44,742 nt of DNA from a virus. Its lineage: Duplodnaviria; Caudoviricetes. The stretch spans positions 1 through 44,742 of the IMG/VR virus record IMGVR_UViG_3300005077_000032; one strand, given 5' to 3'. Under the pieces are notes generated by a model. That model was not told the DNA's origin and ran no database searches. It saw only the letters and a list, made by a program, of their open reading frames with translations. Made by a program: the position numbers and the translations under genes. Position 1 is the first letter of the stretch; every line of letters starts with the position of its first letter. Below are positions 2,441 through 41,273 of this stretch, piece after piece.

Positions 2441-2471
2441 TTGACTTTTACAATTTATCTTCGTATCTTGG
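2441..2471 (+). promoter_or_regulatory. Host-RNA-polymerase (early-type) promoter
   Basis: TTGACT-17 nt-TATCTT (sigma70-like); also fits the FCB-group pattern TTG-N20-TAnnTTTG with one mismatch (TATCTTGG); SD AAGGAG at 2485-2490. Confidence 0.65.
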
Positions 2472-2497
2472 AGCAAATCCAAACAAGGAGAATGATC

Positions 2498-2905
2498 ATG
2501 AAGAAGCTTCAGAGTGCTGCCGAAGTGATGGCAAATCTTATGGATGGTGTCAAGATTGCAAAGAGTAATTGGTCTAATGCTTTAAATTGTTATGTTACAA
2601 TATACAATGGCAGGATTGTAATTGTCAACTCTGAGACATATGAAATAAATGATTTTGATGGATCATTCAATGATGATAATTGGTATGTTTGGGAAAAGCC
2701 GATTGTCAAGTTTGATTTCATGACTGCCGTAAGGTATATGGGAGATGGCAAGAAGGTTAGAGTTTGTGACGGTGATAATGATTATGTTTATTATAAAGAT
2801 GATGATGGTGAAATTGTGATGATTGATGTTGATGGTGATTGTTGGCCCGCGAATTTCTACGATTATCAAAGCATGTCCGATCAATGGTATATTCATGAAG
2901 ATTAA
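2498..2905 (+). CDS. Acidic protein with two tandem DUF2829/Tad2-like repeats; putative early anti-defence protein
   Basis: Repeat 1 AEVMANLMDGVKIAKSNW...DDNWYV; repeat 2 FDFMTAVRYMGDGKKVR...SDQWYI; all 5 Trp are TGG; own promoter and terminator. Confidence 0.6.
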   Translation: MKKLQSAAEVMANLMDGVKIAKSNWSNALNCYVTIYNGRIVIVNSETYEINDFDGSFNDDNWYVWEKPIVKFDFMTAVRYMGDGKKVRVCDGDNDYVYYKDDDGEIVMIDVDGDCWPANFYDYQSMSDQWYIHED

Positions 2906-2937
2906 CCAATCATAACAAATTCAAACATGACAATTAC

Positions 2938-2961
2938 AAGGGAGCAAATGCTCCCTTTTTT
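2938..2961 (+). terminator. Intrinsic (rho-independent) terminator
   Basis: AAGGGAGC-AAAT-GCTCCCTT stem-loop followed by a T run, just downstream of the 2498-2905 gene. Confidence 0.85.
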
Positions 2962-3007
2962 CATTATATAAATATCTGTTAATGCAAAGGTTAGATTTCC
3001 TTAATAC

Positions 3008-8712: not shown

Positions 8713-10074
8713 ATGACTGATAAATTAAACGAGGGATATCGAGCAGCATTGGAAAGATATGTCAACAAGTTGAATCAGGAAACAATTCAATTCATTGCCA
8801 ACGAAATCGATCCGTCTCCAACAAAGAAATATACAGAATGATTTTGTGGAATAATATGACACACCTTTCCAGACTGAATGCATGTTTTCAAATATGCCAA
8901 ATGAGACATGGTTTCTACATATAGACCAGTTTTTGAAGAATTTAATGAAATGTGCAAGAAGAAATATATTTCTGGAAGGGCGGCGGACATCTATTCGTAT
9001 AAGAATATAAAAGATCTTCGAGAGGCAGTGGATGCAGCTTATGATCGATACATGCAGAAGAAAAAGATTCCAGTTAAAAAATTTCAATACAACGATTTAT
9101 GAATTCTTCAGATTGAAACCAAGGAACAAGCCATCAAGTATGGTCGCAAAACGAATTGATGCATATCTGCTGTGGTGTATCCGAATAAGTTTCATGAATA
9201 TAATGAAAAATATCATGTATTTATTGTTTTGTATCGAACATTGAAATATTGCGTCTTGATAGGAAGGGAAAAAGCAAAACACATGATATTCGTTTACAAC
9301 GAAAAAGACATTTCAGTTCCATCGGAAGAAGTGTTCAATCATGTTCCAAAAGAAATATTCTTCAACATCATAAATCATGGAAACATGAATGAAAGCTTGA
9401 ACAAGGCATTGGCAAGATACGCTTACAAGCTTGAACCAAAATACATCAGAATGGTGGCTTCAAACATCGATCCGTCTCCGACGAAGAAATATACGGAATG
9501 AATTGTAGACAAGATTGTAAAATATTTCAAACCGCTTCTTGCTCCAACAAAACTGCAATCGGAATATGAAAAATGATTGAGTTTGGAAAATTATTTTAAA
9601 AACATTATCGTTCCGTTTGACGAATTGGTGAAAAATCATGTGATTTCTGGAAGGGAAGCGGACATTTACTCTTATAATAAAATAGATCAATTTTCAAACT
9701 TTGTTAAAAAAAAGCATTATGAATACATCAACAAGAAAAAAGTTCCTGTTAAGAAATTCAAGCATGAAAACTGATGAATCTTGAAAATTGAAAATCAAGA
9801 ACAAGCAATTCGATATGGAAAAGGAACAAGATGATGTTTGTCATCCATCCATCATCGAAATGCGTTTAATGAATACAATGAAAATTGATATATTTTTTAT
9901 CTTTATTGTGGACTTGACAAGTTCACATATCTAATGAACAGGGAGGATAGAAACGAAATAGAAATCTATGACAATGAAGACAATGAAGTCGAACCGGGAT
10001 CTGGAGAATGGATGGATATAACCGATCAAATTCCAAGAAAAATATTCTTGGATATTATTAGGAACAATCGATAA
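8713..10074 (+). CDS. Tandem two-module DPxPxKKY/WC protein
   Basis: Two DPSPTKKYTEW...GRxADIYSY...YGxxTxWCxS units joined by GNMNES; TAATG coupling to the next gene. Confidence 0.82.
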
Positions 10075-11291
10075 TGGCACAGGTATTGTACACATTTGGA
10101 CAAGTTGAAGACATTGCTCCATTCAATCAATTCACAACGATTGCGAGATTGAGCAATTATGCGATTTTTCAAGACAATCTAAACAATTCATTGACTTCGG
10201 ATCTTGAGAAATCATTCCAGTATGTTCAGGTGGTTGGAGAGGGAATGTCTGTTTCTGGAATGATGCAGAAATATGAAAATTTGATGAATGATCCGAATCG
10301 ATACAAGGAATTGATGACCATTCCGGTTGTCACCGTAACAATTCCAACGGAAAATGTTCTTCCGACAACGATCAGTTGCCTTCCATTGTTTGCCGACATT
10401 ATCAAGGCTCCTCAAAAGGGACAATGAGTTTACATCATGGGAATTCCAAAATCAATGTTAGGAATGAATCGAGACGATGGATACATGTTCTATTACATAC
10501 CGTATTCATATTTCTTCAAAACATCAAATAATTTTTATTCCATCACTCCAGACAATGCTGAAACTGGACAGAACGCAAGAAACATATTGTGACCAAGAGA
10601 GGGTTCTACTATCTTTTCCAATGAGAATGGAACTTCATATATTCAATTGGACAACAACGACATTCTCATGTCTTCTGGATATGTTGATTTGGCTGCGAAC
10701 AACAAGAATGTGATAGATACAAAATATGAACAATTTCGCAGAATAAATCCTGTAAATCAGCTTGATGCTTTTATTTACATATCGAAATACAATCGACTTT
10801 GAGAAGAATTGTTGTTCAATTACTTAAAGGAGTTGTATGAAACAAATCAAAATGAACGAATAAATACATACATTGAAAAGCTTTTGGGTGCTAAATCATT
10901 CGAAGAAAGATTGAGAGTTATCTTCAACATAAATCTTTCAAGAAAACCAGCATATGATTACGCACAATCTCCAGAAGAAACGAATGATGAAAACGACAAA
11001 GACTCTGGAATTGCCATCGTTGCAAAAAATATATATTTGACATCTCAGACTCCCGAAGCTCGTTACCATGCAGGGAGAGGGGATCGCATCTTGGACTTGC
11101 TGACAGGTATTGTAATGCATTTGGAGAATGTGAACAGGATGATTCAGAGTCATCAACATTTAGGAACTCCGGCATCCGTCTTGACTCCTGATCCAAGTAC
11201 GATTTCAACCATTGCTCAACTCAACACTTCACTAGCTCAAATAAAAGGAAAGCTCGAATCCATTCTATCTCCTAATATTTTCATATCATAA
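10074..11291 (+). CDS. Baseplate central spike/hub protein (gp5/VgrG-like)
   Basis: OB-fold-like CLPLFADIIKAPQKGQWVYI; C-terminal RGDRILDLL...SHQH (HxH tip motif); adjacent to the gp25-like gene. Confidence 0.68.
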
Positions 11292-11323
11292 ACTATATAT
11301 TTGTAAACGGAATTATATGAAAA

Positions 11324-11860
11324 ATGATTAAAGAACCATTGGATTCAGAACTAGCTTTAATTGATCCAAATAAGTTAAATGTACTAAATCCACCAAAAAC
11401 AGAACTTGAGTCCAAACTCAGTTTGTTGTATGTCATGCTCAATACAAGAGAGGGTGAATGAATATATAACAACGATTTTGGAATCAATTGAACTTCCATA
11501 TTGCCAGAAAACATGACGGATGAAGGTATTCGATCATTCGAATATAGTGTTGTGGAAGTTGTCAACGAAAAGCTTAAAAAATATATTCCAGATTTCAGAG
11601 TAAAAGATGTTGAGGCATATGTGGCAACGAATGTTACCTATGTTGAATCTGGAGTTGTTGTCATGATGACATTTCTTTATAACAATAAGTTTGTGACGGA
11701 TTCGATTACATTGATCAAGTGAAACAGTCAATTTGGAACCTTGTTTGGAAATGTAAGAAAATGAAGTCCACAAGAAGGAGATTCTGGAAATGGTCTTGGA
11801 AATCGAGTCATTTTGAACTTGATTGATACAATAAATGAACAATTGAAGCAAGCATTTTAA
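11324..11860 (+). CDS. Baseplate wedge subunit, gp25/GPW-like
   Basis: LNTREGEWIYNNDFGINW motif (both W are TGA) and LKKYIPDFRVKDV. Confidence 0.75.
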
Positions 11861-11875
11861 GGAGAATAATAAAAA

Positions 11876-12076
11876 ATGATAGACAAATGAATAGAATTGT
11901 TAAAGAAGGGCCACAGATTGACATTTACGGAAAGTTGAGAAACGGATGGAGCTACTATCTGAATGAATGATGCGAATGTTTTTGTCATTCAAAGAGGAAA
12001 TGATATAAAATATTATGATGAAGAGATGATAGAACACATTCTTGCAGGAATGCCTGAAAATCCAGACATAAGCTAG
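11876..12076 (+). CDS. Small hypothetical protein (weak DUF2829/Tad2-like N-terminus)
   Basis: MIDKWIELLKKGHRLTFTESW...; SD AAGGAG; 3 TGA. Confidence 0.55.
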
Positions 12077-12083
12077 GAGATTC

Positions 12084-13454
12084 ATGATGGAAATAATTCT
12101 TGAAGGTGTCAGGTCTGTCATAAAGAAATATAATGGAAAAATTAGTCCAACATTCATCAAATTGGTTGCTGACAAGGTTGATCCGTCTCCAACAAAGAAA
12201 TATACGGAATGATTAATAAAACAATGATGACTAATTTTTAGTGAAAAAGAAAAAGCAAATGCCTCGTGGCTGGCAGATTATGCAATCAAATATCCTGAAA
12301 ATTTTATTGTTTTTGTGAGAAATTGAGCTGATGTCATATCGAAATATTATGAACTTTGCAAAAATAATGTTTTAAAAGGAAAGGAATCTGATATTTATTC
12401 AATTGATAGTTTGCCGGAATTGAGAAGGGTTGTTGATGATGCATGGATTAAATGAAAATCCAAGAGCGAAAAAGTCAACAAATATGATTTTAATAATTGA
12501 TTGATTGTGATTCCATCAAACAAAATTCAATCTATAATATATGGGCAACACACAAAATGATGCATATCGTCATCAATTTTAGGTAATCAATTTGATGAAT
12601 ATAATGAGAAAAATTATATTTTCATTTTCATAAACAAGAATACAAATTCAAAATATGCCGTATTGTTGAATCGAAACATGCCATGAACATATGCAATATG
12701 AAATGAGTTGGATGATAGACTTCCTAACTCATTGAATCAAATATTTGGAATTACTATAGAAAAATTAATGGATTTTTATAGATCTGCCAACAATGTTCAA
12801 CATGAATTGTATAAAAAATATGTTGATTCTGGATTGATATCGACATTCGAATTTCATTATGGAAAAATGAAGAATGATGATACCATAGTTTTATCGGAAG
12901 AAGTATCCTTGGATGGAATTCGAGTACCTTCGGCTCAATTGATAGGAAAGAAAAAGAAAGAATACGGTAATCGAAATATTCATAAATTTGCAGAATGATT
13001 ATCGAAATACATAGAGGTTTGCACGGTAAAGTTTGATACAAAATATTCTGGAGCCGCCTATGATGATGAAACGGATATTATTTACATAAATCCATTCTAT
13101 TACAGATCTGCAAATAGATTGGAAGATGTGTTGAGACATGAATTGACTCATTATGTTCAGACAAAGAAATCAAAAGGAAAAATGGGTCAAAATTATAAAG
13201 GTGGGCCAACGAATACAAGAAAATCAGATATTATTTATGCATTGCAAGATGCCGAAATTGGCGCTAACGCTATTCAATGAGCATTGAGAGGTCATGAAAC
13301 ATTTGAAGATGCTTTGGAAAAAGAAAGTCCATTCTTAAAGTTTACAATCAATTGAGAATGAGACAGGTTAACAAAAAATGAAAAAATTTGGATAAATAAG
13401 CAATGAAAGAAATTCAGAATGCAATTTTACAATCAAAAGGCAAGGAATGAATAA
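12084..13454 (+). CDS. DPxPxKKY/WC module fused to a C-terminal HExxH zinc metallopeptidase
   Basis: DPSPTKKYTEW...YGQHTKWCIS; then GAAYDDETDIIYIN...VLRHELTHYVQ (13137)...DAEIGANA; SD AGGAG. Confidence 0.8.
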
Positions 13455-14419
13455 TGGACATTCATAATATATTGATACAAGAAGTCATTGACATGAGTGA
13501 AGTACCATTTCCAGACATTGAAGACATATTAAAGTATGTCAAGATGGATTTGAGATTTAATCGAATCATTGGATCTGTGAAGAAGTCGTTCACAGAAACA
13601 TATTTAAGTAATTTCTATAAGGAAATGGATCTTAAGTTCAAAATAACATACAAAAAAGGAAAAGGTTATTCCAAATCTGGAAGGTTTAGTTTTGTTCATG
13701 ATTCTTCGAGTGTGATATTTATAGAAACAACCTTTCCACCAAATCCAAATCCAGAATACATTGCTACAATGATAAGGAGAGTGTTGATTCATGAAATGGT
13801 ACATTCTGTTCAATATTCAAAAAAGCATTCAGAAAGAATTGAAAAATTATATCAAAATTATCATTCTCCAAAAAGTGACGATAATTTGAAAACAATAAAT
13901 TATTACATGCAACACGCTGAACGAGGTGCGGAAATGTATGCTATGGCAAGAATGTATTTTAAAGATCCAGAAGCAGAAAATTTTCATAAATGTTTTAAAG
14001 AAACATATCCAAAACTCATCGATGCAATAAATGATGTTTGACCATCATTAAGCAATATGCAAAAGAAAAAAATTAAATCATCGCTTGAAAGAATGAGAAG
14101 AGAATATTTAAATCAATTGTACAATTTGCAAAAGAAATATGGAAAGGTAAATGAAGAAATGCTAGGAGGAAGCACGATTCCTAGAAATTCTGGAAGAGGT
14201 TTTTATCCATATAATACTGAACCCAAAGAGGATGATACGATGAATCATTACATGAATCTTTTAAGAAGAGGAAGAAGGCTGAAAATCATGGACGAAGATC
14301 CCTCGGAAAAGTATCTTGTAATGAAAGATAATAAGTTTTATGTTCTTTATTTGCCGACACAAGAAACAACTCCTGTTGATATGAATTTTATCATGAGCAT
14401 TACTTTGGACGAGGAATAA
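13454..14419 (+). CDS. HExxH zinc metallopeptidase (zincin) with C-terminal extension
   Basis: VLIHEMVHSVQ (13790)...YYMQHAERGA; joins two supplied ORFs across TGA 14039. Confidence 0.78.
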
Positions 14420-14424
14420 AATAA

Positions 14425-16155
14425 ATGATAATAAATGAAATTCTCAAAGAAAAATTTGATTATCTTGTAAAGAATAAAATCATTAAAGGAAAAGTTGCAG
14501 ACATTCGATCTTATGAAAGTGAAGATCAATTGTCATGATTCTTGGAAAAATTTGATGATCAGATTATGACAGCAAAAATGGAAGAAAGGTTGAATTCTTG
14601 GCAAGAACAATATCCAAACAAGAAAATAATCTTTGTTGGATTTGGAAACTGGATCAGTCTTGAAAATGATCTTTGACCTTGAAGAATGGAATTGTGGCAC
14701 AGAGATGTTGAAAATCGAATAGCTGATATTGTTTTCAATCAAAAGAAATTGCAAGGAAAAGTTTATTTGAATATAATTTCTACAAGGCTTGAAAAGAAAT
14801 ATCAAGGTCGTGCATATGGAAATTTATTATATGAAACATTGCTGGATCTAAGTCAAGATGGATTGATCATAGATACGACGAAGAGATCAAATGTCGGAAT
14901 GGCTTCAGATATATGGAAGAAATTTGGTGGTAAAAAGTTTGGTGAATATATTATCATTCCAAAATCGATCAATGAATCCGTTAAAACAGCTATTAAAAGA
15001 TTTGGTCATATTTATGGAGAAGATCTCATTCGAAGGATGGCTAATGCTTTAGATCCAACACCAATAAAAAAATATATTGAATGAGTATGTAAACAATATT
15101 TAAATGATATACCTAATATTAAATATTTTGAAAAACAAGGAGATCTTCAAAATTTTTTTAATTCTGATCTAAAGCTATTTTCAAAATTTGAAGATTTGAT
15201 AAAAAGGAATATTGTTACTGGAAAAGAAGCCGATATTAATTCGTATAAAAACCATCAAGAGCTTTTTCAATTTTTGTCAGAAAAGGAGATGGTTATAACT
15301 CGTTCACAAATAAAAAGAGAGTTTTCAAAAGTAAAAAACAAAACAATTGAAAATGGAAATATGATTATATTGATATCAAATGAAGAAGAGGCAAAAAAAT
15401 ATGGAAAGGGAACAAAATGATGCATATCGGCAGAAGAAGATAATCAATTCAATACATACAGATATGGTTCTAGAATATATACAATTTATTTTATAATTAC
15501 AAAAAACAATGAAAAATATGCAGTTTTGATTCCTCAAAAATTAGATGATGATTTTTCTATATGCGATGCACAAGATGATAAAATAGAGTATGATGTAAAT
15601 TTGTCGCAATCAAAAGTTCTTAAAAGATTGGGAATTTCATGAAGAAATTTTAAATATGTTCCTCTTTCATATGATGAATTGATTTCTATTCCCGGCGCAT
15701 TGGCTCGTGCAATTCTTCGTTTAAAAAGAATGCCAAAAGGCGAAAGAAAAAATGAAATGTTCGAAAAAGTCATATTAAATTATAAAGTAAAAAACATGAT
15801 ACCGATGCTTATATGTAGATATGTGGAAGCAACAGAAGAAAGATGACCAGAAATTGAAGAGATGATATTCGATTCAGGTTATTGTTTTAAATATGCAGAA
15901 AATTTAAAAATGAGACTTTCGGATGAAATAGAAAATAAATGATTACATCACGATTGAAAAAATGAAAATAATTTTTCGTGATTTTTGGATAATATTCCGT
16001 ATTATTGTGTTCGTGGAAGAAAACAAAGATGACCAGAAATGGAAAAAGTATTTCCAATATTTTGAAGCGAAGCTTATTGTCATTTTTTTGATATTGACAA
16101 TGACGAACAAGAAAAGCTGAATTTAAAATATGATGAAATCTTTAAACAAAAATAA
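14425..16155 (+). CDS. Mosaic protein: partial module + GNAT-like domain + full DPxPxKKY/WC module + RWPExE helical repeats
   Basis: GKVADIRSY; LEKKYQGRAYGNLLY...ASDIWKKFG; SINES linker; DPTPIKKYIEW...YGKGTKWCIS; ERWPEIEE and QRWPEMEK. Confidence 0.75.
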
Positions 16156-16197
16156 CAAAATTAAACTAAATATAAGTATATAAAAGGAAAAATATCG

Positions 16198-18066: not shown

Positions 18067-18511
18067 ACATGTACTGTTAGAAGATCCGCATAGAGCTATT
18101 ATTGATGCAGATTACTATAATGAATATCAAGCGGATGTTATTATTGTAATGGATAGAGAACTTTGTGCAATAGGACTGAGAAAGGAAAGTGTATTATTTT
18201 TAAATGACAAATCAAAAGAAATACCACAACACGAAAGATTTAAGTTTGTTACTCATGCTGATCTTTTAATTCAATGCAAAGAAGCATTTGGTGAATTTCC
18301 ATATTTAAAAGATGAAAACGATGGTGCTATTGGAAGAGGATGAATCATAAATAATATCTTATATATTGCTTGATGAGGAACTTATCAAGATATTCAAGGA
18401 ATGTGATATATGATAGATCGATATTTATTTAATAAATTTAATAGAGAAATTTATTTTTCATATGCAAAAGATGAACCATCATTAGAAGATGAATGAATAA
18501 GGGTAAAATAA
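18047..18511 (+). CDS. Hypothetical protein with N-terminal LLE motif (putative head-packaged cargo)
   Basis: HVLLEDP...THADL...GRGWIINNILYIAWW; ends at TAA 18509. Confidence 0.6.
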
Positions 18512-18513
18512 AA

Positions 18514-19923: not shown

Positions 19924-19934
19924 GAGATTATATC

Positions 19935-20102
19935 ATGGCAATAGCGCAAGGACAAACACTACCACCACCAGCAGAGATACCGATTAACTTTGCAATAAAG
20001 TTTGCAGATATAAATGTAAACAGGGCAGTTCAAATTGAACCAAACAAAAGAACTGTGATATTGATTAATTTAACAAAAAACATTATAACTCCGGTAAAGT
20101 AA
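19935..20102 (+). CDS. Small hypothetical protein
   Basis: SD AGGAG at 19922; MAIAQGQTLPPP... Confidence 0.6.
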   Translation: MAIAQGQTLPPPAEIPINFAIKFADINVNRAVQIEPNKRTVILINLTKNIITPVK

Positions 20103-20103
20103 A

Positions 20104-27000: not shown

Positions 27001-27840
27001 GCGTCAAATAATGCCGATTGGAATGAATTTGTAAGTGAGTGAGCAAAAGAAGATCATGGTGATGAACCATATGAAGGAAACGATCTATTGTTGTTCACCA
27101 ATAGAAATAGAAGAAAATATTTGATTGGAATAAATGATAATTCTACCGAGTTTAATGACGCTGACAATTATGGAATAGATTTGTCCGATGAAGATTATAT
27201 ACGAGATTTGAAGATCATGCAGAAATTAATTACGAATTCTGATTATCATATCGGTGTTGAATTTACAATCAAAGAATCAGAAGACAGCATTGCTGCATGA
27301 TTGTTGGACATGAAAGTTTGACACAAAGATCCGATGACAGCAATTCGAAAAATTAAAGAAGTATTAAAAAATTATCCCATGACACTTCCTCTTGTAGAAG
27401 ATTTTGTGAAAATAAATAAAGACAATGTTCAAGATTGGAAAGAATATTATTCTGGATATTTTGAAAAATTAAAATCAGGTTCATTTTTTCAAAATGTAGA
27501 TAAAAATTATAAAAATGAAGATGATGTGTTAAAAAGAATAAAAAAGACAAACGATACCATGTTGATGCATTACAAGCATTTTACGCAACAAATATTAAAC
27601 ATTGAAGAAATACCAAGATGAAAATCTATGGAAGATGAATTGTTGAGAACAAAAGATTATGAAAATTTATTAAACTATGTATACATATTAAAACAAAGAA
27701 TTCCAGAAATAGAACAGGCTTTGAAAGAAAGTCCAGAACATATGAAAAAATATATTGAATTCATGAAAAGAGAATTCTTGCTTGATAGACAACAAAATTT
27801 ACCATTAGAAGATGAGGAAAAGACAATAAATGTCCAGTAG
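24049..27840 (+). CDS. Large (1263 aa) multidomain protein with two divergent DPxPxKKY/WC modules
   Basis: LKEDFDSK...DPTSDKAAKYTPW...KKDINSY...LLWCVKN and LEEDWESK...DPTFPKGKYMHW...SKNINDY...CAGSTWCVKD; eight supplied ORFs in one frame. Confidence 0.78.
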
Positions 27841-30800
27841 ATCATATACGCTGAATTCATTATCATCGCATGAAAAAGTCCTTGCTTCTTTGTCGAAAAG
27901 AAATGCAAAAAGAATAAGAGAAAATATTGATTTTTCATCATTTTCAAATTTTGTGTATTTTGGATCTGCCTTGTATGAAGTCAATTATGCAATCAACGAG
28001 ATATTGGACTTTTATCCTTCGTTTGAAAAATGAGGAGTTTCAGCAACGAATCTTGTAGTTACTGCCGATGATAGTTTCGTTGCTGAATATTTGGGTTGGA
28101 AATATGATTCAGATCCATTCTCTGTTTATCTCGCAAATCGAATAGCAACAACTTCAATAACAGCTACGATTACTGGAGCAACCTATGCTTCTTCGAGCGC
28201 ACAATCTTATAGTTTTGTAATTCCATTTTTGCATAGACAATATTTAAATCAATGATATTTTAGCTCAGATGCTGTAGTTTCGGAAGTAAATTCTTGGATT
28301 GCATCAGCTACAGATTATGATGTATACAATTTAGGAAAGTTGACCGATTTTCTTCCTGATGTGATGACTCAACAAGATGATGAATTTGATACATTGATAA
28401 AGGCAATTGCAAAACAGTTTGATGATTTGTATATTACAATGAAAGATATCAAAAATCTATATGCAATGGAATATCAATTTGATAATTTACCAAATGATTT
28501 CATATTGAATCAATTTATAGATTCTTTAGGATTTAGAAGAGTATATGATCTAACCGAAAAGAATTTAATAGATTATTATCAAGCTGTTCATGGAACAACT
28601 TATTCTGGAGTTGATATATCAAGGTATTTCAAAGCTGCATTTGTAAACAATATTTCGGGAATCATAAAGTCCAAAGGAACAAGAAAAGCAGTTAGAATGC
28701 TTGGGAACATTTTTGGATGACCAGAAAATTTAATTCAGATCAATGAATATATTACCATTTCAAAGGATGCACCATCATCAGGATTTACATATCATAATTG
28801 AACATATCAACCAGTAAATATTCCAGTTAAGACTCTTTATGGTGGATCTCAAAAATTTCAGGCGGCACCAAGCGAACCTAATTTTATAGTAACACATTTT
28901 ACATTTCCAGATTTTTATAAATTAAGAAATGGTACGATTGACTCAAATATTGATGGAATGGAAATTATTACATTAGTATATGATGGAGGTGGAGTAGAGA
29001 ATAAGGCTTATATAAACTATTCTTCAAGTGCAATAGGAATGATGGGAACACCAATGGCATTTCCTGCTACTGATAGTACATTTGATTATGTAACAACAGA
29101 CACAATATTTACTCTATCTTATGATTTAAAAGTTGGTGTTGCTTATTTGTCATATTATTCTCCTATTATAAATCATAAGATAGAAGATTCATCTACGGCC
29201 AAATCAATAGGAACTATATATTCATTATCAGCAAATGTGGGAACTTCAGCATCTCCGATTGCAACATGATACAATTTAATTATTGATTATCATGGAAATG
29301 AATGATTAAACACTCTTGGAGTTAAAATATATGTAAATTCAAATCCTGTAACTATTGCTTCATTGTCTTCGTTAATCATGGACTATCAGACATTAAAATG
29401 AAATTCAAATAATCCATATGGATATTGAGAAATTCCTAGCATTCCACAATACGGAGAAGCGATTACTCATTATGTTGATAAAATAGGAAAAGAAAATGCC
29501 ATTGCTGCAATTTCTCCATCTTCTGCCGAATTAAAAACAATTTATGTATTAAAAGCTCAAGAGATGAAATTTTCTGCTGGAGTTGCCATTGATCCTATTG
29601 GAATATATGTAGATAAAGATGGAAATGTATCAAATTATTTAAGATCAAACAATAGATTAGAAATTATTTGTTCTCCAACAAAAATAATTAATGATTTTAT
29701 TCAAAATTTATTGACAAATTATAATATAGATGATCTATATGGAAAAGCAAGCGATTTATACGAACCAAATTATTCAAAATTAACTACATTGATGGATACA
29801 ATTAATGCCTTCTTGTCTGCCTATAGTTCATATTTCGACTTTCAGACATTTTATAAGGTTTTAAAGACACAATATCCAGAAAATATCATAAAAATGATAA
29901 TCGAATTCTTGGTTCCAGCAAAAAGTGATGTGGAAGGCGGAATTTTAGTTGAAAACGACATGCTTTATGACAAAAAATATGCTTGAAAGAAACCACAATG
30001 TTCAGACGAAGAATTACAGCATTCAATTTATCAAGAAAAAACAAGCAATTCATTAATAGTTGATGAATCGGTAATTTTTAAAGAAATATTGAAAAATCAA
30101 GCTAGTGAACAGTCTGAATCTTCTGAAGAGGTTGTTGTATCTGTTTTGGAATCACTTTATAACATATATGAATCAAACAAAATTCAAAATATTCAAAACT
30201 CTGCCGTAAATCAATTGGATAATGTAGATTGTAATCATGTAATTCAAAAAACATCATCAGCAGTAACAATAAGTGAATGTACAATAGCAAGTCCATCAAA
30301 CAATTTATCACTTTCTTCATATGAAAATCGATATCTTATAAGTTCGTCTTGAGGATTAAACGATTATCAAGGAAATGAAACTAGTGTGAATAGCATAACT
30401 GGATTGTTTAAGTTTGGTGAGACTTTGACGAATTCAAATTGGATTATAGAAAATGCTTATGAAGAAAAAATAGCACATTCAGAAATATCTCAGTTGAATA
30501 TGTCATGAAATAAAACAGAAATGAAAAACAATGATGAATATGGAACATTAAATTTAAGCTTAACAAGATATGGCAATCAAAGTCCAAATGCAAAAATAAA
30601 ATTAATTATACCATCAAGAACAGAGAGTGATTTAGAACCAATTATTGTATTTTCAAATGTCTATTCTGCATCTGGAGATATTGGATATCCATCATTGTCT
30701 ACTGCAACAGAACTGACAATAAAATTAGGTTCTGATGGATTTAGACATTTGAATTATTCGCTTAATGTTCCAGAAATTGCATCTTCGGCAATTTCAAATG

Positions 30801-31309
30801 CATCTACGATAGTTAATTTTGGAAATTTAGGCCCAAGCGCAACTCCTATTACAATGCCTGTAATTGGAAATAATGCGTTTTTGGGTGATGCTGGAAATTT
30901 ATTGTCGTTTATTATCGAAGAAGATCAAAATATGCATTCATCTTATGCTAAGTGTGAGATAATAAAAAATAAAATTATTAAATTGAGCGTAATAGAAGTG
31001 CCTTATGTAGTATATAATATTATAGATGCATTGACATCAAATTCAAATATCAACAATTTTGTAACATTGGATCTGTCATCTTTATATTTGGCAAGGGATA
31101 ATTCTACATCTGATCTTGATTGAATGTCAAAAACTGTTGGAGAATTCAAATTACAGAATGGATTAGGAGAGATGTCAACAATAAAAAATAAAGATTATGA
31201 TATTCAGGCATTGAACATATATAATTATGAGAAAAAGCAATTTAGAATTACTCCAAGAGTTGATTCGATTGCCATAGATGAAAATCAACCGATTAAAGAA
31301 ACAACATAA
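27830..31309 (+). CDS. Large baseplate wedge protein (gp7 / P2 gpI-like)
   Basis: DFSSFSNFVYFGSA; LPD...IAKQFDDLY; IIKSKGTRKAVRMLGNIFGW; seven supplied ORFs in one frame, 1159 aa. Confidence 0.75.
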
Positions 31310-31324
31310 TAGGAGAAGTGGAAT

Positions 31325-31909
31325 ATGTTTTTGTCAAGTACAGGAAACATTATAGAAGCTAGATTGACCCGTGCTGGTCGTGAAGCTTTGGCAAGGGGAG
31401 AATTCAACATCACTCAATTTGCATTATCAGATGACGGAGTTAATTACAATCTGTATGATTCAACATTGGGAGATAATGCCGATGCTCAAATTTTAGCACT
31501 TCCAGTTTTGGAAGCTAATACAAATGATAATTCTGCATTGCAAAACTTGTTGATCACTATGGATGATGGAACTCAAATAATGACATTCATAACTGTTAAT
31601 GGAACTCCAGCCATTACTTCAACAAGTCCAAGATGTACATTATTCATAAAAACAAATAATGTTGAAGACATTTCAGAGAATTATTCAATTATAGATTTAA
31701 ACAACGAATTGTCATTCACACAAAATATTAAAGTAACACAAGATAAAGCATCTGGTGGCGGTGTTAATATGATCTTGGAATATAGTTCAAATTCAAACAT
31801 TTCAGAAAGTACAACATATACATTCAAGGTTCAGGGGCAGAAATCCGGTGTTCAGTCGGACACTATCACCATGACGGTTGCTGCATGAATTCCCGCTCCA
31901 ACAGCTTAA
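31325..31909 (+). CDS. Baseplate/tail-collar-like structural protein
   Basis: ARLTRAGREALARGEFNITQFALSDDGVNY resembles the tail-collar fibre N-terminal pattern (LTxxG..LA...IT.FA..D); SD AGGAG. Confidence 0.65.
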
Positions 31910-31928
31910 TCAAAAAGGATAAAGGAAA

Positions 31929-32918
31929 ATGAGATACACATATAAGAAGTTTGAAACAGATGATGTCGTTCTTCAAGAAAATGATCCAACATATTTCTTA
32001 TGATATTTGGCAAATGATGGAACTGGAACTGATGGATCTGGGGACAAATGGGTAAATTCTAGTATTTCTGGATGGATCAAACATGCCATTGCTATGACGG
32101 GATCAACTGCTGCATTGTCTGGATCTAACGGGTCTGTTTTGGACGGAAATATAACAAGCAAAGAAATATATAATGTTATAGGAACAAAATATTTTGCGCT
32201 TGATGATCCAACAACGGATCTAATTCAATGAAGTGGAAGTTCAATTTCAAAATTTTATGTAATTATGATAAATTCACAATTGTTTTTAGATAGACTAAGA
32301 CAAAGTGGTACTACTTTTGATCTAAAATGAACAAATAATAGTTGAACTACTACTGGATATAAATTTAGACTAGTAAATGATAGTTCGACAGCAACAGTAT
32401 ATGACCCGGCACAGGCTTCTATTTACTATCATGGTAATCATGGATCTTTGTCTTCAACAAAAGTTGGAACTGCATTTTTGGATGATGGATTGCTTTGTTT
32501 TATGATTGCAGGAAATGAAACTGTAACTGGCTTATTAAGAGCTATATTTGACGAAACAACCTCTCCATTGACTGCTGCACAAAACCTACCAGCATTTATT
32601 AATTCTGTAGCAGCAAGTTCAGTATGTCAAGGAATTACAGCTAATTCAATTGAATATCAAAATAGCTATATTTATTTCTGCGAAGCGAAAAATAAAGAAT
32701 TTAATTATTCATTAAATACAACTTGATCAGTTACAGCATCTCCATATGTTGGAACTAGAAGGGTTAGAGATGCATTTACAATCACTCCAAAGACATATAT
32801 TACTGGAGTTGGGTTATATGATGATAACGGTCAACTTTTAGCTGTTGCAAAAGCAAACATTCCAAGAAAGAAGGATAGGTATAATAGAGCATTGTTTAAG
32901 GTTAAAATTACCTTATAA
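31929..32918 (+). CDS. Baseplate/tail-collar-like structural protein, paralog 1
   Basis: EFNYSLN...PKTYITGVGLYDDNGQLLAVAK C-terminal motif. Confidence 0.7.
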
Positions 32919-32926
32919 GGAATTAA

Positions 32927-34027
32927 ATGAAAGTTCAACATGACAGAGAATACATATATCATCAAATACCAACCTCGTCAGTTCCAATTGTAGAGAGGAT
33001 AGAATATCTATATGAAAACAATGATATAAAGTTTGATTCTAATAATAATAATGTTCCATTGTACATAGAAGCATTTACGGCAAGAACCTTATCGTCTAGA
33101 ACCGATCCTGACGATAAGGTTTTTTTTAGAGGATTTGATAATGGACATTCATTGTCTGGAAGTTGGTTTTGGGCCGATAATATTTTTTATCAATTACAAT
33201 CACAATTTTTTAAGACAGATGCTTATAATAATAGATCATATATAACAAATCCATGAACTGGAGCTTCTGTGTCTTCTTTACATTGTATTGCTTTTTCAAA
33301 TCATTTATTCAAAGATAAATTGGATAGTTTTAATTCAGATATTATTATTTCAATTACTGGAGATTTGGAAAATTCTTGGTATATTGGATATAGTGAATAT
33401 GATACTACTACATTCATTTATACTTCTGACATGACAACTATGGCTACAATAACTAACCTTACAAAAGCAGAAGATGGATTGAAAGTTCAAGAATGAGATG
33501 ATATGGAATTAGATTATGTCTACATTCAGGCAAAAGTATTTTATAATAGCAATTCGTTTTATAGAATTTCTGGAGTTTTATTCAAAGATTATGGATTGAT
33601 AATGTTGTTTAATGACATAGATTCTTGACCACAATTTGAAACTGCAAGACTGACAAACAAGAATGATAGTAATTTAGGATCAACGGCAAATCCGGCAGTT
33701 TGATGAAATATTCTTGAACAAAGAATTAAATATAATTATGTTCAATATTATTATGATTATAAAGTTACAATCAATATACCATGAGATAGAGCAAATTATA
33801 CATCTAATCAAACAGTAAAAAGTTTAAGTGGAAATTATATGTTTAATAAAATAAATGATCTTAACGAATTGGCAAAAATGGAAAAAACACTTCATCCAAA
33901 AACATATATTTCTACAATTTCATTGATGAATGATAAAAATGATGTAATGGCAATTTGTAAATTTCCACATCCAATAAAAAAAGATTTTTTAAATGAATAT
34001 GATTTTAACATAAGGATTAGAAGATAA
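32927..34027 (+). CDS. Baseplate/tail-collar-like structural protein, paralog 2
   Basis: ANYTSN...PKTYISTISLMNDKNDVMAICKFPHPIKK C-terminal motif. Confidence 0.68.
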
Positions 34028-34413
34028 TGTCAGTACCAAGCGGAATGCAAGTTGGATTACCCGTTAGCGCAGCAGATGTGAGATATATATATGAAGCATT
34101 AACTGCTGGCGAGCAGGAAATAAACATAGGCACTATATTTTTAAATATTATGTGTGCTAGTTCTGATCCTATTTATATTCATTCTTTAGATTTGATAGAT
34201 TCTACTGAATCAAACAGAGAAAAAACTTCGTTAACAGATATAAATGATATATTTAATTTATATAGTATGAGTGCGATGTCAACTAATCATGGTCATATAA
34301 AAAAGATTTCTTGAATAGATTCAAATTTAAGAATTTATAAATTAACAGCTATATGTATGCAAAAAGGAATATCAACATATACTTGAGTAGAAATTTCGAG
34401 AGGAATTGGATAA
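34027..34413 (+). CDS. Hypothetical tail-associated protein
   Basis: TAATG coupling on both sides; N-terminus (ADVRYIYEALTAG) resembles that of the next gene (SHVTSIYTQLTDG). Confidence 0.62.
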
Positions 34414-34826
34414 TGTCATGAATTGAAGTTCCAGCAACTTTATATAGTGATAAAGCAGTAACATCGGATGCGTCACATGTTACTAGTATCTATACACAAT
34501 TAACTGATGGCACAAGAGAATTTATTGCAAATACTATTGTTTGCAAGGATTTTATATGTAATTCTTTTACTGGTTGCGTCTCTGATATGTTTAAATTAGT
34601 ATTACTTCCTATTGATTCTACCATTATAGGAAATTATTCTCAAAATATAGATTATATATTAAAATCACAAGAGTATCATCCAGACAAGTATCAAAATAAA
34701 ATATTAAATTTTGTTGGAATAAATTATTCTTATGCTTATAATAATTTTTCAGCAACTGTTCAATCTTTAAAAAATCAATATAATGTTTGAGAGTGAAATT
34801 TAGTAGGAATTTATCAATGGAACTAA
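34413..34826 (+). CDS. Hypothetical tail-associated protein
   Basis: MSWIEVP... (codon 3 is TGA); ends at TAA 34824. Confidence 0.62.
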
Positions 34827-35734
34827 TATCATCAGTAAATATTCAAAATGGATATACTCCTTATATTAATGCATATACAAATATTTATTCATATTTGACT
34901 GGATATAGTGGTTTTGGAATTGGAGATGATTCATATGCAATATCTGCTTATAGTACAACTGGCGCTATCAATCATGTTATAATTGAAAATCTTTCTGCCT
35001 CTCAAATTTGATTACATGATTCTTCATATGCAAATGGAAATGTAATAAGTGGTAGTAGTACAAGTGTAATTTTTGGAATTAGTGCTGTTACTGGAGATTA
35101 TGGAGTTTATCTTGTCGGAGATCATTTGCAACCAAATTGAGCTGTCACTGCTGATTATGATAATTCTACATATCAAAGAATATTAAAATATTTTTCTTGA
35201 TCTTATTGAATCCAAGATGCAGCATCGGCATCAGTTAGCGGATGTTTTGCGTATCCAACTGATGATATTAATGGAAAAACAAAAGTTGGTGATACAATAA
35301 GCGCATATCCAGCATCAAAATATTTTTGCGTATCTGCCACATCATGAAATATAGATCCGTCAAATTCATTAAATCAAAATGAATCATATTTAATTTATAA
35401 AATAGATAGTGGAGAAAATATATTTTGTTCAGCAACATATGCTAATGGGTCAAATTATTTTTGAGTAGTTTCTTTGAGAGGTATTGCGACTGGATCGATA
35501 GTAGATTGATATCTTTATTTAACAGAAACATGATCTTCAAAAAATACAAGCACTCAATCTGGATCTGGAACCTTTAGAATAGATGATGAAAATATTAATT
35601 CTGCATCTGGAAATACATATGGTGGCACAAGAGGGGACGCTCCAATTACCGGAGCAAGAAGTAGTTTGGCTCAATCTATTGGAAATTCTTCTAACTTTAA
35701 ATGAGTTGAATTTTGTGGAGTAAATTGAATATAA
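34817..35734 (+). CDS. Ser/Gly/Tyr-rich beta-structured virion protein (possible receptor-binding/fibre component)
   Basis: 305 aa open frame under code 4 with many TGA; TAATG coupling downstream. Confidence 0.62.
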
Positions 35735-36630
35735 TGCATTATAATTTTGTAAATAAAAATGATTTTCAAAGAATGACAAATTCCGGCATGTCTGGATATA
35801 ATGGAAGTGTTTCATATTATACTTCTTTTGTTCCAATTGGTAAAAAATCATTGAGAACAAAAGAGCTTCATAGTATTGAAACCATAACTTCTTCTGGAGA
35901 TCTTGCTTTGGTCGGGCCATATTTGATTTCTAGTTCTAATTTTGCTCCATATAAAAATTATTTTGATGGACTATATCCAGATTTCTTTGATTGAGATTCA
36001 AATTCTTCTGCTGCCATCGTGGTTCTTCCTCATGGAGATGGAATTGTATTGCAATCAATTAATTATACATTTAATAATGTAGCGGCAACTGGTTCTGTTT
36101 ATGATTTCTTAACAACTTCGGCAAATGAAAATTTTCCCGTACATTATAAAAAGATAGGATATTTGCAGACAGCTATTGACAATTTGATAAAAGGTTATAT
36201 ATTATATGGTGATGGAGTCTGCATTTTCTTTAATGAAATAGCAAATTCATTAAGTTCATTTGAATCTGGTGATTCCTTACAGTTTTCTACAATTTTAGAT
36301 CAGCACGAAATGACATATAGTTGTTTGGTTGATGGAGAAAAAATTTGATCTTCAAGCAATTCAACATATTGAAGTTCGATAGATGAATCAAATACAGCAG
36401 TTACCAGTTCATTAACCGCTTATTGAAATGAAAATAATTATTCAAATAATACTATTGCAAATAGTGCCTCTGCATGAATGATCATTGAACAAAATGACAA
36501 GCCAGTCTTCGTTACTTCAATAGGACTATATAATAATAAGAATGAGTGTCTGGCGGTTGCGACATTGGCCGAACCATTTAGGATATTGGAGAATTTTGAT
36601 ATAACATTCTTGGTTAAATTTAGATTTTAG
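35734..36630 (+). CDS. Baseplate/tail-collar-like structural protein, paralog 3
   Basis: KPVFVTSIGLYNNKNECLAVATLAEP C-terminal motif. Confidence 0.7.
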
Positions 36631-36637: not shown

Positions 36638-37186
36638 ATGACAAAAGTATTGGGATTAGACATCAGTACATCAAATATTGGAATTTGTGTGTCTGACGAG
36701 AGTGATATCATTTATGAATTCATATCAATTCCGTTAAATAAAATAGTTAAAGATAAAGATCTTTTTAAAAAAGTATCGGTTTTTGAAGTTGCAATCAATA
36801 AGATTTTTGCAAAGCATGACATTTCTCACACCTTCATAGAAAAACCACTTGAATTTTTCAAACAAAGTGAAAGTATGGCTCATACAATAATTTTATTAAA
36901 TTGTTTCAATATTTTATGTCAATATATTCTTCATGGAAAGAAAATAAAGTATACATTGGTATCTCCATCAACTGCATTAAAATGTGCTATTGGAAGAGGA
37001 ACTAAGCCAACCTGAGTCAAGGATAAGAAATCGTGATTGGCAAAGATATTTGAACAAACACATCCTGAAATCGAATTAAAAAAATATGAAAAGGGTAAGA
37101 GCGTCGGAGAAATACATGCAGAAATGTACGATCCAATAGACGCATGAGTGTTGACGAGAAGCATAAACGCGCAAAACATAAAATAG
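36638..37186 (+). CDS. ruvC: RuvC-like Holliday junction resolvase
   Basis: VLGLDISTSNIGI, FIEKP and C-terminal YDPIDA catalytic acids; the last are reached only through two TGA codons. Confidence 0.82.
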
Positions 37187-37193
37187 AGGGTTT

Positions 37194-38141
37194 ATGGACA
37201 AATCAATAATACTTCCAGCATTTGAAGATGCTATGGGATCTTATATAGACAAAGATCCAGAATTTCTTTTCACATGTCCAAACGATGATTGTCCAAGTAG
37301 AGCAAAGGGAAAGAAAAAGTTACAAGTAAATATAGAAAAAAACATGTTTCATTGTTGGGTTTGTGAATTCAAGGGAAGATCTCTGCTTTATCTAGTTAAA
37401 TATCTTAATTTAGATCCATCCATATTGGGATTGGATACCATACCACAAGATACAGATTTGGAATCCATCATTTTAGACAACCCACCAGAAATTGAAATCC
37501 AGCACATGGTAAAAATTCCAGAAAATTACATTTTGATAGATGGATGCAAGGATAAAAAGTCAAATAATTATTTAAAAGCAATGAAATATCTTTCCAAAAG
37601 AGGAATTTCTGAATTTGATATTGCAAAATATAGAATTCATTATCAATTTGATGGTTATTCCGTATTAATTCCTAGCTATAATAAGAATGGAGATTGTAAT
37701 ACATATTTTGTTAGAGGAATTCTTGATAATATGAAGTATATTCCTCCATTTCCTAGAAAAAGTATCATAGCAAATGAAATCTTTATAGATTGGAAAGAAA
37801 AAATATATTTGGTTGAAGGATTTTTTGATGCTATAACTGCTGGAGACAATGCAGTTCCATTGCTTGGATCTTTTATTAAATCAGACCATCTGATTTTCGA
37901 TAGGATATTGCAAAATAGGCCAGAATGTGTTATATTAGCATTGGATAGGGATGCCTTTGAAAAGAAAACATTAAGAATTGCAAATTTATTCCATAAACAT
38001 GAAGTTCCAGTTAAGTTGGTTAGATTTCCCAATGATAGAGATATCAATGATATAGGAAGAAAGCAATTTATGAGATTGGTTGAAGATGCAGAAGTGTTTC
38101 ACAATTTGTATATTTTAGAACATGAATTGGACAATATTTAG
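37194..38141 (+). CDS. dnaG: DNA primase (Zn-binding domain + TOPRIM)
   Basis: CPNDDC...FHCWVC, YLSKRGI, LVEGFFDA, LALDRDA, DIND; both Trp are TGG. Confidence 0.88.
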   Translation: MDKSIILPAFEDAMGSYIDKDPEFLFTCPNDDCPSRAKGKKKLQVNIEKNMFHCWVCEFKGRSLLYLVKYLNLDPSILGLDTIPQDTDLESIILDNPPEIEIQHMVKIPENYILIDGCKDKKSNNYLKAMKYLSKRGISEFDIAKYRIHYQFDGYSVLIPSYNKNGDCNTYFVRGILDNMKYIPPFPRKSIIANEIFIDWKEKIYLVEGFFDAITAGDNAVPLLGSFIKSDHLIFDRILQNRPECVILALDRDAFEKKTLRIANLFHKHEVPVKLVRFPNDRDINDIGRKQFMRLVEDAEVFHNLYILEHELDNI

Positions 38142-38150
38142 GAGTAATTA

Positions 38151-41100
38151 ATGAATAATTGAAAAATAGTTGCATTATCAGATATACATATTAGAACAGT
38201 TAATAGACACGAAGAATATAAATTAATTTTTGAAAAGACATTGCAAGAAATTGAAAAGCTGCAACCAGATTATATCTTCAATCTTGGAGATACATTTCAT
38301 AATAAATTGCAATTAAGTCCAGAATCTATCATTCTTGCAAAATGATTTTTTGAAAAGCTCGCCCTAATTGCTCCAACATATACCCTTGTTGGAAATCATG
38401 ATATGAATGTAACGAATCCAAACAGGCCAAGCTCCGTCAACGCAGTTTTAAATGATATTCCAAATCATTTTATTTTGGATAGCAGTAAATTTATTACACT
38501 GAACAAGCCATCAGATGAAAGAATGGGATTGTGCATAGGTCATTATGCGTTCAATCAACCAAAGAGTGAGTGACCTATAAAGGTCGATAAAAAGCATAGA
38601 AACGACTACATCAACATTGCATTATATCATGGGGCAGTTGACCTATATCAGACGGATGCGGGTTGGCAAGACGATTCTATGATTAAATATAATGAATGCT
38701 TTTTGGATTATGATATGCTATTGTGTGGAGATATTCACAGCACTCAGAAGCTAAACAAAAAAGCGTGAATGGTAGGGAATCTTATTCAACAAAATTTTGG
38801 AGAAGATGTTAACAAAGGATTTTTGTATTTAGAAATTGGAAACAAAGAAGATAATTTCGTTGAAAAACATTCGATATTAAATGATTATAATTATTTGAAT
38901 GTATTTATTCCAATTTCAAAAGTTGAAAATGCAAAAAATGTAATAGTTGAAACATTGGAAGATCAACATATTACAAATAAAAGCAATATAAGAATCGTTG
39001 TTTCTACAAATAATATATTGGATGTGAGTTTTAAAGAAGATATAACATCATTTGTTTTAAACAAATATGGAATTAATCCAATTATTGAAGAAGCGTTCAG
39101 GTTGAACGAAAATCAAATAGAAACAAAAGAAGTCAGAGATAATTATACTCCAATAAATTTTTCAAATGTAAGTTATCAAAATGAATTAATAGAAAATTAT
39201 CTAAAAAATAATTTTACGGTTCCAGATGGAGTTGAATTGAATGATATCTTTAACATAAACAAAGAAATAAATAATGAACTTGGAATAACAAAATCTGATG
39301 GCTCTTCTAGACTTTGGAATATATTAAAATTGGAATTTCAGAATATGTTCCAATATAGTCATGTTGAGATAGATTTTCAAAATGATATGTCTGGATTAAT
39401 TGGATTATTTGGAGATAACGCTTCTGGAAAATCCAATCTATTTAATGCGTTGTCATTCATAATTTTTGGAAAAACGACAACAAATGTTGCTTTTGCAGAT
39501 GTTATTAGAAGTGGCGAAGATTTTGCAAAAGGTCAAGTTTATTTAACAAATGGGGATTCTGTTTTTAGAATTAATAGGGAATTGATAACTGGAACAAGAG
39601 CAGCAAAGCATATAGTTAAATTTGAAAAGTTGGAAAATGGTAGTTGGATTCCGATGAATGAAGAAACTGTTCCGCTAACCAACAAGGCAATAGCAGATAT
39701 CTTTGGATCATTTGAAAATTTCATTCTCACAACATTGTCCGTTCAAAACAATTATTTTTCATTTGTTAGATCAACAAATACGCAAAGAAAAGATGTTGTT
39801 ATGGAAAATTTAGGAATTGGAATTTTCAATTCTTTGTTTGATATATCAAAACAGAAGATAAAGGAGGTAAATGCTGTCATAGATGTTCTTGGAGATACAA
39901 AACCATTACTTACCAATCTTCAATTGCATAAAGATGAAATCAATAAAATAAAAGAAGACAACAAGAGTCAAAAGGAACTGTTAGAAAAATCAACCAATAT
40001 TCTAAAATCAGTAGATGAAAAAGTAAGCGTTTTTTTAAGCAAGATTAAACCAATAAATTGTGTAATTATTGACAAAGACAATATTCAAAATCAAATAAAA
40101 GAATATGAATCTGAAATTAAAAAATTAGAATTGTTGAGATCAAAGATCGAAATGGAAGGTGTTGAATTAAAAGAGAAAATAACAAAATCAAAAGAAGACA
40201 TTAAAAAATTAGTTAATGCTTGCAGAGATCAGATCAATAATTTAAATATTCAAATTGGAATATTAAAAGAATCTATTAAAAAATATAATTCAATAAAAGA
40301 AAAATATGGTGAAATTAATTGTAAAGAATCTACATGCGTTCTTTTGATGCGATATCAAGAAGAAGCAGGAAATATAGATGGTATAGAGGATGATTTGCAA
40401 TTGAAATTACAAAATCAACAAAAATATAAAAAAATGTTGGAAAGATTTGAAAATGAAATGGATTGGCATCAACAATTGGAGAGAATTACAAACCAATCTT
40501 CGGAAGTTGAATCAAAGATCATCAATCTCAATTTAAGAATTGAAAACAAAAAGCAATTGATAGAAGAATTTGACAAAAGCAAGCACATAATTCAAGAAAA
40601 TGAAAAAGTTCAGAAATCAATAGATGATCTTTCTTTCAAAAGAGGAAAAATAGTTGAAATTTTATCTATGGCTAAAGCCAAGATCGAAGCAAATAAAAAG
40701 TTAACCATAGAACACGAAAGACAGATAACAACAATTAATTTACAAATTGAACAATTATTTGAGATGAGAAGAAAAGCAAATGCATTGATTGTATATAGAG
40801 ATATAATGAATCAAAATTCTTTGCCAAATACCATCTTAAATAATTATATTTCAATATTGGAAACGGAAGTTAATAGAATATTGGGAACATCTTTGGGATT
40901 GTCTGTAAAAATATTATTGGACTTAAAAGATGGAAACAAAAAGTCTGAATTGAATATTTCATTTAAGAATATAAAAGATGAGTGGTATCCGATAGAAGCA
41001 TCCTCTGGAGCGGAAGAAATGTTGTTGTCGTTGGCTATTAGAGTGGCACTAATCAACATAACAAGTATAAGTAGATGTAACATGTTAGTTATAGATGAAG

Positions 41101-41273
41101 GATTTGGAAACTTGCATAGCACAAAGATACCAGAGCTTGGCTTGTTGTTTGATAAAATAAAGAGAATGTTTAAGACCATAATCATAATTTCTCATTTAGA
41201 ATCAATTCATGATTTTGTTGAAAAAGCGATTGTGGTTAGTGTTGAAGATAAGGTTTCTAAATTAGTTGTTTAA
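38151..41273 (+). CDS. Fused SbcD/Mre11 nuclease - SbcC/Rad50 ATPase (gp47-gp46-like), 1040 aa
   Basis: SDIH, GDTFH, GNHD, YHG, GDIH phosphoesterase motifs, then Walker A GDNASGKS, coiled coil, SSGAE, IDEGFG, ISH; one frame with 4 TGA; SD AGGAG. Confidence 0.88.

Follow-up and report, generated by a model that had tools for sequence, protein, structure and literature searches.

We examined how tryptophan (Trp) is written in a virus contig of 44,742 bases (IMGVR_UViG_3300005077_000032), the whole of which is the window of this analysis, and in particular which of its genes keep TGG in a genome that mostly uses TGA. The window has a G+C content of 31% and contains baseplate wedge-like genes, a RuvC-like resolvase, a primase, a fused SbcD-SbcC nuclease, a Nudix hydrolase, ribosomal protein bS21, and a glycosyltransferase. 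It represents part of the genome of a large T4-like phage. Its relatives encode T4-type capsid, sheath and tube, and completeness ratings of 13-22% for four related records (25-44 kb) imply a genome size of ~180-210 kb. Open reading frames (ORFs) of at least 80 codons cover a share of 0.55 of the window under code 11 and 0.98 when TGA is read through, versus 0.58 with TAG readthrough, which rules out TAG recoding. In alignments of the clade, TGA stands opposite TGG 92 times, opposite Phe or Tyr 94 times, and never opposite Gly among 595 aligned pairs. TGA thus encodes Trp in the window and its recoded relatives, and a reading as Gly (code 25) is ruled out. Both features by which code-4 phages are recognized, a rise in coding density with TGA readthrough and the alignment of TGA with Trp, are present in the window. 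CGG is used once among 14,547 window codons.

Codon choice was analyzed in 49 window genes, hand-picked among the ORF candidates after removal of antisense and nested low-score ORFs. These genes hold 249 TGA and 49 TGG Trp codons and end in 39 TAA and 10 TAG stops, with no TGA stops. An earlier sequence-only reading of this DNA had stated that TGA predominates outside a few genes and that the gene at 2498-2905 (5/5 Trp) and the primase gene (2/2) use TGG only, all of which holds. The two codons are unevenly distributed among genes (chi-square 86.4, 42 degrees of freedom, permutation p 5e-5; dispersion 2.06, p 0.0002), in contrast to the even TGA spread expected for the phage of a code-4 host. 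Leaving out the 2498 gene raises the p value to 0.011, and also dropping primase and SbcCD raises it to 0.21; the real unevenness in the window rests on these three genes, which are still the top TGG outliers once general codon bias is modelled. For any window gene as extreme as 5/5 TGG, the family-wise p is 0.0012. Two more small genes are TGG-only (8523-8687, 0 TGA/2 TGG; 44288-44731, 0 TGA/1 TGG). Among gene classes, which were set by hand, the 14 baseplate/tail-like genes hold 92 TGA and 13 TGG, and the eight genes of a repeat family, five of which lie at 4434-10074 or within 10074-36630, hold 97 TGA and 18 TGG.

The base before the codon matters somewhat (TGG share 0.11 after A and 0.21 after T, p 7e-4) and the base after it has little influence (p 0.06); following-base context and motif avoidance were considered as causes and showed no clear effect. 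TGA codons near gene starts, which the sequence-only reading had pointed out within the first 13 codons of several genes, are present at codons 2-13 of 8 of the 49 genes but are not enriched (9.2 expected), which rules out N-terminal TGA as a gate. That reading had also set apart the Rad50 half of the SbcD-SbcC gene as 4/4 TGG. The count is correct, but this half belongs to the same ORF as SbcD, whose TGA at codon 4 would block it under code 11. Along the ORF, TGA occurs at codons 4, 65, 141 and 206, and TGG at codons 172, 389, 499, 772 and 945. An internal start for the Rad50 half was considered and rejected, as one of ten candidates at codons 207-399, a weak one, has a Shine-Dalgarno (SD)-like motif and relatives place TGA elsewhere.

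The gene at 2498-2905 likely encodes a tandem Tad2-like anti-defence protein. A Pfam scan gives no direct match for the protein itself. Its first match in the ESM Atlas (0.92) is to a PF11195 cluster, and it has just two relatives among 1.84 billion representatives, at 29-31% identity, both of which exceed the Pfam cut-off for Tad2-like proteins. A model predicted from the three sequences has a predicted local distance difference test score (pLDDT) of 84, a single-sequence model with a pLDDT of 43 having been set aside, and the top 11 Foldseek rows obtained with it are all Tad2 structures, at E 0.02-0.07 with none at E<=0.001. Tad2 proteins are described, in the accessible part of the source, as binding away immune signals (10.1101/2025.08.24.671296). 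The predicted protein resembles these sponge proteins (PF11195) in fold and family by the Atlas, its relatives, and Foldseek, but differs from solved Tad2 in fusing two domains in tandem and in its identity of 15-19%. We infer that the gene acts early. Because it has no close relative, it is possible that it was recently gained from a standard-code phage. Three other window genes look Tad2-like by eye, namely 6481-7188 (a GNAT acetyltransferase with a C-terminal segment), 4041-4280, and 11876-12076; none has a Pfam Tad2 match, and all put TGA at some Trp.

The 2498 gene had been credited with a clear host-type promoter and its own terminator. The terminator is present at 2938-2957. The promoter-like site at 2441, taken alone, is not clear, as it agrees with the consensus at 9/12 positions and a scan of the window finds 80 sites like it versus 70 +/- 8.5 in shuffled sequence. 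In its favor, the site is intergenic and a near-identical motif exists in L009, one of the recoded relatives; no other exact match occurs on either strand of 6.1 Mb of sequence, for a motif defined from those two.

Seven more locus sets belong to the recoded clade (G001, G002, L009, L014, L015, L017, and L019), some of which may belong to one phage. With the window, the eight sets comprise 234 genes with 933 TGA and 181 TGG. The TGG share is 0.06-0.22 over the eight sets, comparable to other G-ending codons, and 71-84% of the genes in every set carry TGA. Six of the eight phage sets have a TGG dispersion among genes of 2.0-4.0. Distant primase relatives (29-37% identity), several of them syntenic, use code 11, and three distant loci marked as code 4 by ORF coverage proved to be code 11 when eight loci were inspected. 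No further contigs of the clade turned up in scans with primase and sheath, and a promoter-motif scan for the early region of the clade gave 24 loci, none from the clade.

Counts for gene families span four lineages. In primase, 10 of 13 Trp codons are TGG (1.4 expected, p 1e-8; 8/11 without the window), with 2/2 in the window, 3/3 in L014, 4/4 in L015, and 1/4 in G002, where TGA occupies codons 52, 55 and 182. G-ending Lys, Glu, Gln and Arg codons of primase are at background in four of four lineages. The primases are vertically related within the clade (40-66% identical), and synonymous sites are saturated between lineages (9 GG pairs observed versus 8.5 expected), so the shared TGG is not leftover ancestry; its presence in the relatives with little other codon shift makes selection likely. 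SbcCD has TGG at 15 of 38 Trp (5/9, 0/8, 1/10, and 9/11). Since both families had been named in advance by the sequence-only reading, selection against TGA in primase and SbcCD is supported.

The major capsid gene has 21/34 TGG (4.7 expected) and is TGG-rich in three of four lineages (8/9, 5/9, 7/8, and 1/8); most structural genes are at background TGA, and no lysis gene was identified. The capsid gene also shifts generally to G- and C-ending codons, as is typical for high expression. A small gene of the head region, so labelled from its position only, has 8/13 TGG. TGG is at or below background in the resolvase, the glycosyltransferase, and a gene that we take to be terminase-like. Invariant Trp columns are richer in TGG (46/141 versus 30/181). 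Inheritance of TGG at conserved Trp was considered and rejected, because synonymous sites are saturated and TGA fills most such columns once primase, capsid, SbcCD, and the head-region gene are set aside.

How far this pattern follows early and late expression was assessed from promoters and gene content. An outcome that the sequence-only reading had named as refuting its proposal is seen in a relative: the same promoter motif in L009 leads a divergent 482-codon ORF with 14 TGA and 2 TGG, the first TGA being codon 26. Within this ORF lies a Tad2-like segment (Pfam E 1.5e-4, narrowly missing the cut-off) with TGA at 3/3 Trp, and the small gene downstream of it has 3 TGA/0 TGG. The family-A polymerase of G001, behind TTGACA-17-TATATT, uses TGG at 4/5 Trp and TGA at codon 98. 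In L002, L014, and L015, primase is preceded by a TATATA motif and not by a host-type promoter; this motif is the common intergenic motif of the clade (3.2 per kb in intergenic versus 0.6 per kb in coding sequence). Of the proposed partition of the two codons by gene class, the non-random retention of TGG stands, but there is no clean early/late split, as the capsid is TGG-rich and SbcCD contains TGA. The proposal that early genes are TGA-free fits the 2498 gene and the window primase, but not the L009 promoter-led gene, the G002 primase, the G001 polymerase, or any of the four SbcCD genes. A Pfam scan of the window genes found no release factor, and of 38 viral loci with the UCA-tRNA pattern, not one could be linked to the clade.

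As a natively recoded control, we used a family with 12 small genomes of Patescibacteria type, reached via the tRNA-pattern scan of species genomes. It has in-frame TGA in rpsC in 11/11 matches and is probably the JAKLIH01 family of PMC13695967. In 395 genes of five control genomes, the TGG share is 0.19-0.37 and the dispersion 0.76-1.79. The control writes Trp freely as TGA in ribosomal-protein genes (42 TGA/6 TGG) and in dnaG (28 TGA/5 TGG, 11 genomes), and a native code-4 cell therefore need not favor TGG there. One control genome, G004, holds TGG-only genes (0/8 and 0/4), which means that single imported genes can resemble the 2498 gene. Comparison of 40 kb of the window with the 12 control genomes gives spacer-like matches at chance level only, with two checked for arrays, and the clade capsid has no match in species genomes. 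As a host hint, bS21 gives non-specific matches, and the bS21 of the control family is unlike that of the phage. The UCA-anticodon tRNA pattern was also seen in the Patescibacteria-labelled genomes L250 (JBAZTY010000004.1), L221, and L268.

Table 1 Features of the window
Feature	Coordinates	Strand	Basis and Trp codons
252-aa protein	918..1676	+	sigma-like by a motif only; 4 TGA/0 TGG at codons 13, 22, 70, 240
HNH/endonuclease VII-like gene	1806..2405	+	PHROGs E 2.6e-10; 6 TGA/0 TGG
sigma-70-type promoter-like site TTGACT-17-TATCTT	2441..2469	+	9/12 consensus; within 92-nt intergenic gap
Shine-Dalgarno-like AAGGAG	2485..2490	+	sequence reading
Tandem two-domain Tad2-like protein (likely), 135 aa	2498..2905	+	0 TGA/5 TGG
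Intrinsic terminator-like hairpin (2938-2957) with T run	2938..2963	+	sequence scan
TATATA motif, candidate phage-type promoter ahead of downstream operon	2965..2970	+	intergenic enrichment; putative function
Mostly virion-type genes and repeated unknown family	10074..36630	+	baseplate wedge matches at 11324 and 16198; background TGA use
RuvC-like resolvase	36638..37186	+	3 TGA/0 TGG; 0/9 TGG over four lineages
DNA primase	37194..38141	+	PHROGs E 1.3e-33; 0 TGA/2 TGG
Fused SbcD-SbcC (Mre11-Rad50-like) nuclease	38151..41273	+	Pfam/PHROGs-type searches; 4 TGA/5 TGG
Nudix gene	41257-41745	-	sole minus-strand gene; 5 TGA/0 TGG
Ribosomal protein bS21	41800..42060	+	Pfam E 4.7e-9; TGA at codon 11

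Several further features accompany these genes. The label sigma given to the 918-1676 gene has no database support, the protein having no match in any database or profile library tried. Among its homologues in the protein collection, two end exactly before Trp 240 and one begins after Trp 70, as expected if TGA was read as a stop. A minus-strand TTGACA-16-TATCTT (10/12) at 1676-1703 aims antisense into the 3' end of this gene. The Nudix gene diverges from bS21, and the 54-nt gap between them holds two TATATA motifs. Genes at the bS21 position in L002 (5984-6313), L014 (7637-7948), and L015 (5726-6052) are far diverged from the window bS21. An unknown repeated domain with the pattern DP-P-KKY-EW ... 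ADIYSY ... WC occurs in the eight repeat-family genes (starts at 4434, 5432, 7181, 8713, 12087, 14425, 22026, and 24049; 4434-27840 of the window), is doubled in several, and matches unnamed PHROGs only (17056 and 28193). The gene at 3975-4175 of L001 and its orthologues encode an Hc1 histone-like protein (Pfam E 5e-14) that is without Trp and is kept clade-wide. Portal- and terminase-region genes at L001 9800-13358, L009 14029-18249, and L339 1472-3678 are far longer than their orthologues and appear to hold intein or endonuclease insertions. The tetramer ACGT is nearly missing from the window (1 observed versus 38 expected) and likewise from L017 (1 of 17), CGCG is missing from G001, and GTAC from L015; these differences between lineages suggest different host restriction systems. 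Finally, positions 3119-9000 are richer in G+C (0.35-0.40) and in third-position G+C than the remaining window, with short tandem repeats at 6371-6478, and are possibly a recently gained block, though TGA-rich.

We tentatively favor, at a little under an even chance, a reading in which the phage writes Trp as TGA throughout, TGA is costlier than TGG, and TGG is kept where early timing or high output matters. The host would use the standard code, and a phage tRNA reading UCA, encoded outside the sequenced fragments, would compete with host release factor 2. Each TGA would then risk premature termination, most of all soon after infection, and the outcome would be a graded, soft bias with no hard gate. 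The Tad2-like gene and primase may be spared for timing and the capsid gene for dose, and the cost of TGA may vary by lineage, being undetectable in G002. This reading draws on the genes in which TGG exceeds the background of their own genome, which are primase, SbcCD, the Tad2-like gene, the major capsid gene, and the small head-region gene. It also draws on the code 11 of the distant syntenic relatives and on the lower dispersion and free TGA use of the natively recoded control. Several observations weigh against it. TGG is evenly spread in G002 and L009 (dispersion 0.75 and 0.53), the G002 capsid has 7 TGA/1 TGG despite its general codon shift, and the TGA-rich early-type gene of L009 fits badly with inefficient readthrough early on. 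The capsid and head-region families were chosen from a ranking of 37 Trp-bearing families, though both survive correction for this; the tail tube shows a weak excess (7/17 TGG, p 0.035) and the tail sheath none (5/27). No suppressor tRNA (UCA), release factor (RF1 included), or TrpRS was found in any clade fragment, the records of relatives being 13-22% complete, and no host link for the clade emerged among the spacer, capsid, and bS21 comparisons made. In addition, the control comes from a single bacterial family, with over-dispersion (1.79) in one of the five genomes analyzed.

Were the host natively code 4, TGA would be a plain synonym from the start of infection, the Tad2-like gene a recent import from a standard-code phage, and the other TGG codons a product of host tRNA supply. 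We regard this as possible, though on the unlikely side. The TGG share of the clade equals that of other G-ending codons and overlaps that of natively recoded bacteria, TGA pervades all eight locus sets, the L009 ORF and its Tad2-like segment accept TGA, G002 is even throughout, relatives of the 2498 protein reach about 32% identity at most, G004 has TGG-only genes of its own, and code-4 Patescibacteria exist, as stated in the accessible text of PMC13695967. Such a host, however, leaves unexplained a primase that is vertical in the clade and rich in TGG although its other codons hardly shift. In the control family, TGA is preferred even by ribosomal-protein genes and dnaG, and neither its bS21 nor the spacer-like comparison gives a tie to the phage. 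The high AAG use of the 2498 gene (8/9) is a weak sign of foreign origin, being common to neighbor genes. A hard timed switch on a standard-code host, with early genes strictly TGA-free and later genes unreadable until the code changes, differs from the favored reading in degree, and we consider it unlikely. The model has been published for gut phages, as the accessible part of that report sets out (10.1101/2021.08.26.457843), and it would account for the TGA-free state of the one gene in the window that has both a host-type promoter and a terminator and is of an anti-defence family, for the TGA-free primase in three of four lineages and the mostly TGG polymerase of G001, and for the exclusive use of TGA in bS21, the resolvase, and the HNH gene. 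In the sequence covered, which does not reach the early region of the window's own phage, it is contradicted by the TGA-rich gene behind the same motif in L009, by TGA in the G002 primase, the G001 polymerase, and every SbcCD gene (4, 8, 9, and 2), and by the TATATA motif ahead of primase; the capsid excess runs opposite to its prediction, and N-terminal TGA is at chance. That chance or sequence context alone produced the pattern is highly improbable: counts per gene are small and the preceding base has an effect, but the family-wise p for the 2498 gene, the repetition of the primase pattern in independent lineages, and the slight influence of the following base speak against it. It is also conceivable, though improbable, that a ~200-kb T4-like clade spans both states, most members imposing TGA as Trp on a standard-code host and G002-like sisters having moved to a code-4 host with loss of the bias. 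G002 marker proteins are 73-80% identical to those of sister lineages.

The favored reading of TGA as a costly codon can be set against published systems, each described here from the accessible part of its source. In TGA-recoded gut phages (10.1101/2021.08.26.457843), structural and lysis genes are recoded and replication genes are variable, and mean recoding by clade is 26-71% with standard-code hosts and 90% with code-25 hosts. The present clade resembles them in TGA as Trp in structural genes, a TGA-rich homing-type endonuclease, variably spared replication genes, low G+C, and the lack of TGA stops. Unlike them, it is near saturation by the share of genes carrying TGA (in mostly late fragments), has no TGA-free block but spares single genes, including capsid, and shows no code-change module in its fragments; the words 'capsid' and 'primase' are absent from the main text of that report. 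Mgcod (10.1101/2022.06.29.495998) suggests a soft switch, with early genes grouped into dual-coded blocks. Here, too, the translation of some genes is the same under either code, but these are isolated inside recoded operons. Dense in-frame TGA is shared with code-25 phages of Absconditabacteria and Gracilibacteria (PMC10746230) and code-4 Patescibacteria (PMC13695967), especially in G002 and L009, but, in contrast to the code-25 phages, TGA here is Trp and not Gly, no host link was found, and six locus sets are over-dispersed. Like the large freshwater phages that encode bS21 and express it late (PMC9723584), the present phage is T4-like and carries bS21. The window bS21, however, shares its strand with the downstream neighbors near SbcCD and is not on the reverse strand of a head module, SD motifs are common here (72/130 long genes), and recoding goes unmentioned in the available text on those phages. 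A literature search that left out most subscription papers and supplements found no account of this clade or of capsid or primase sparing in a TGA-recoded phage.

The finding is a modest refinement of known phage stop-codon recoding, drawn from fragments without a host. The published model for why phages recode stop codons is a timer. The clade suggests that a per-codon cost remains after near-complete recoding, visible in an anti-defence sponge, primase, and capsid, and it names specific genes and sister lineages for comparing readthrough efficiency. If the clade does span both states, phage recoding would either open the way to host jumps between genetic codes or be what such jumps leave behind.

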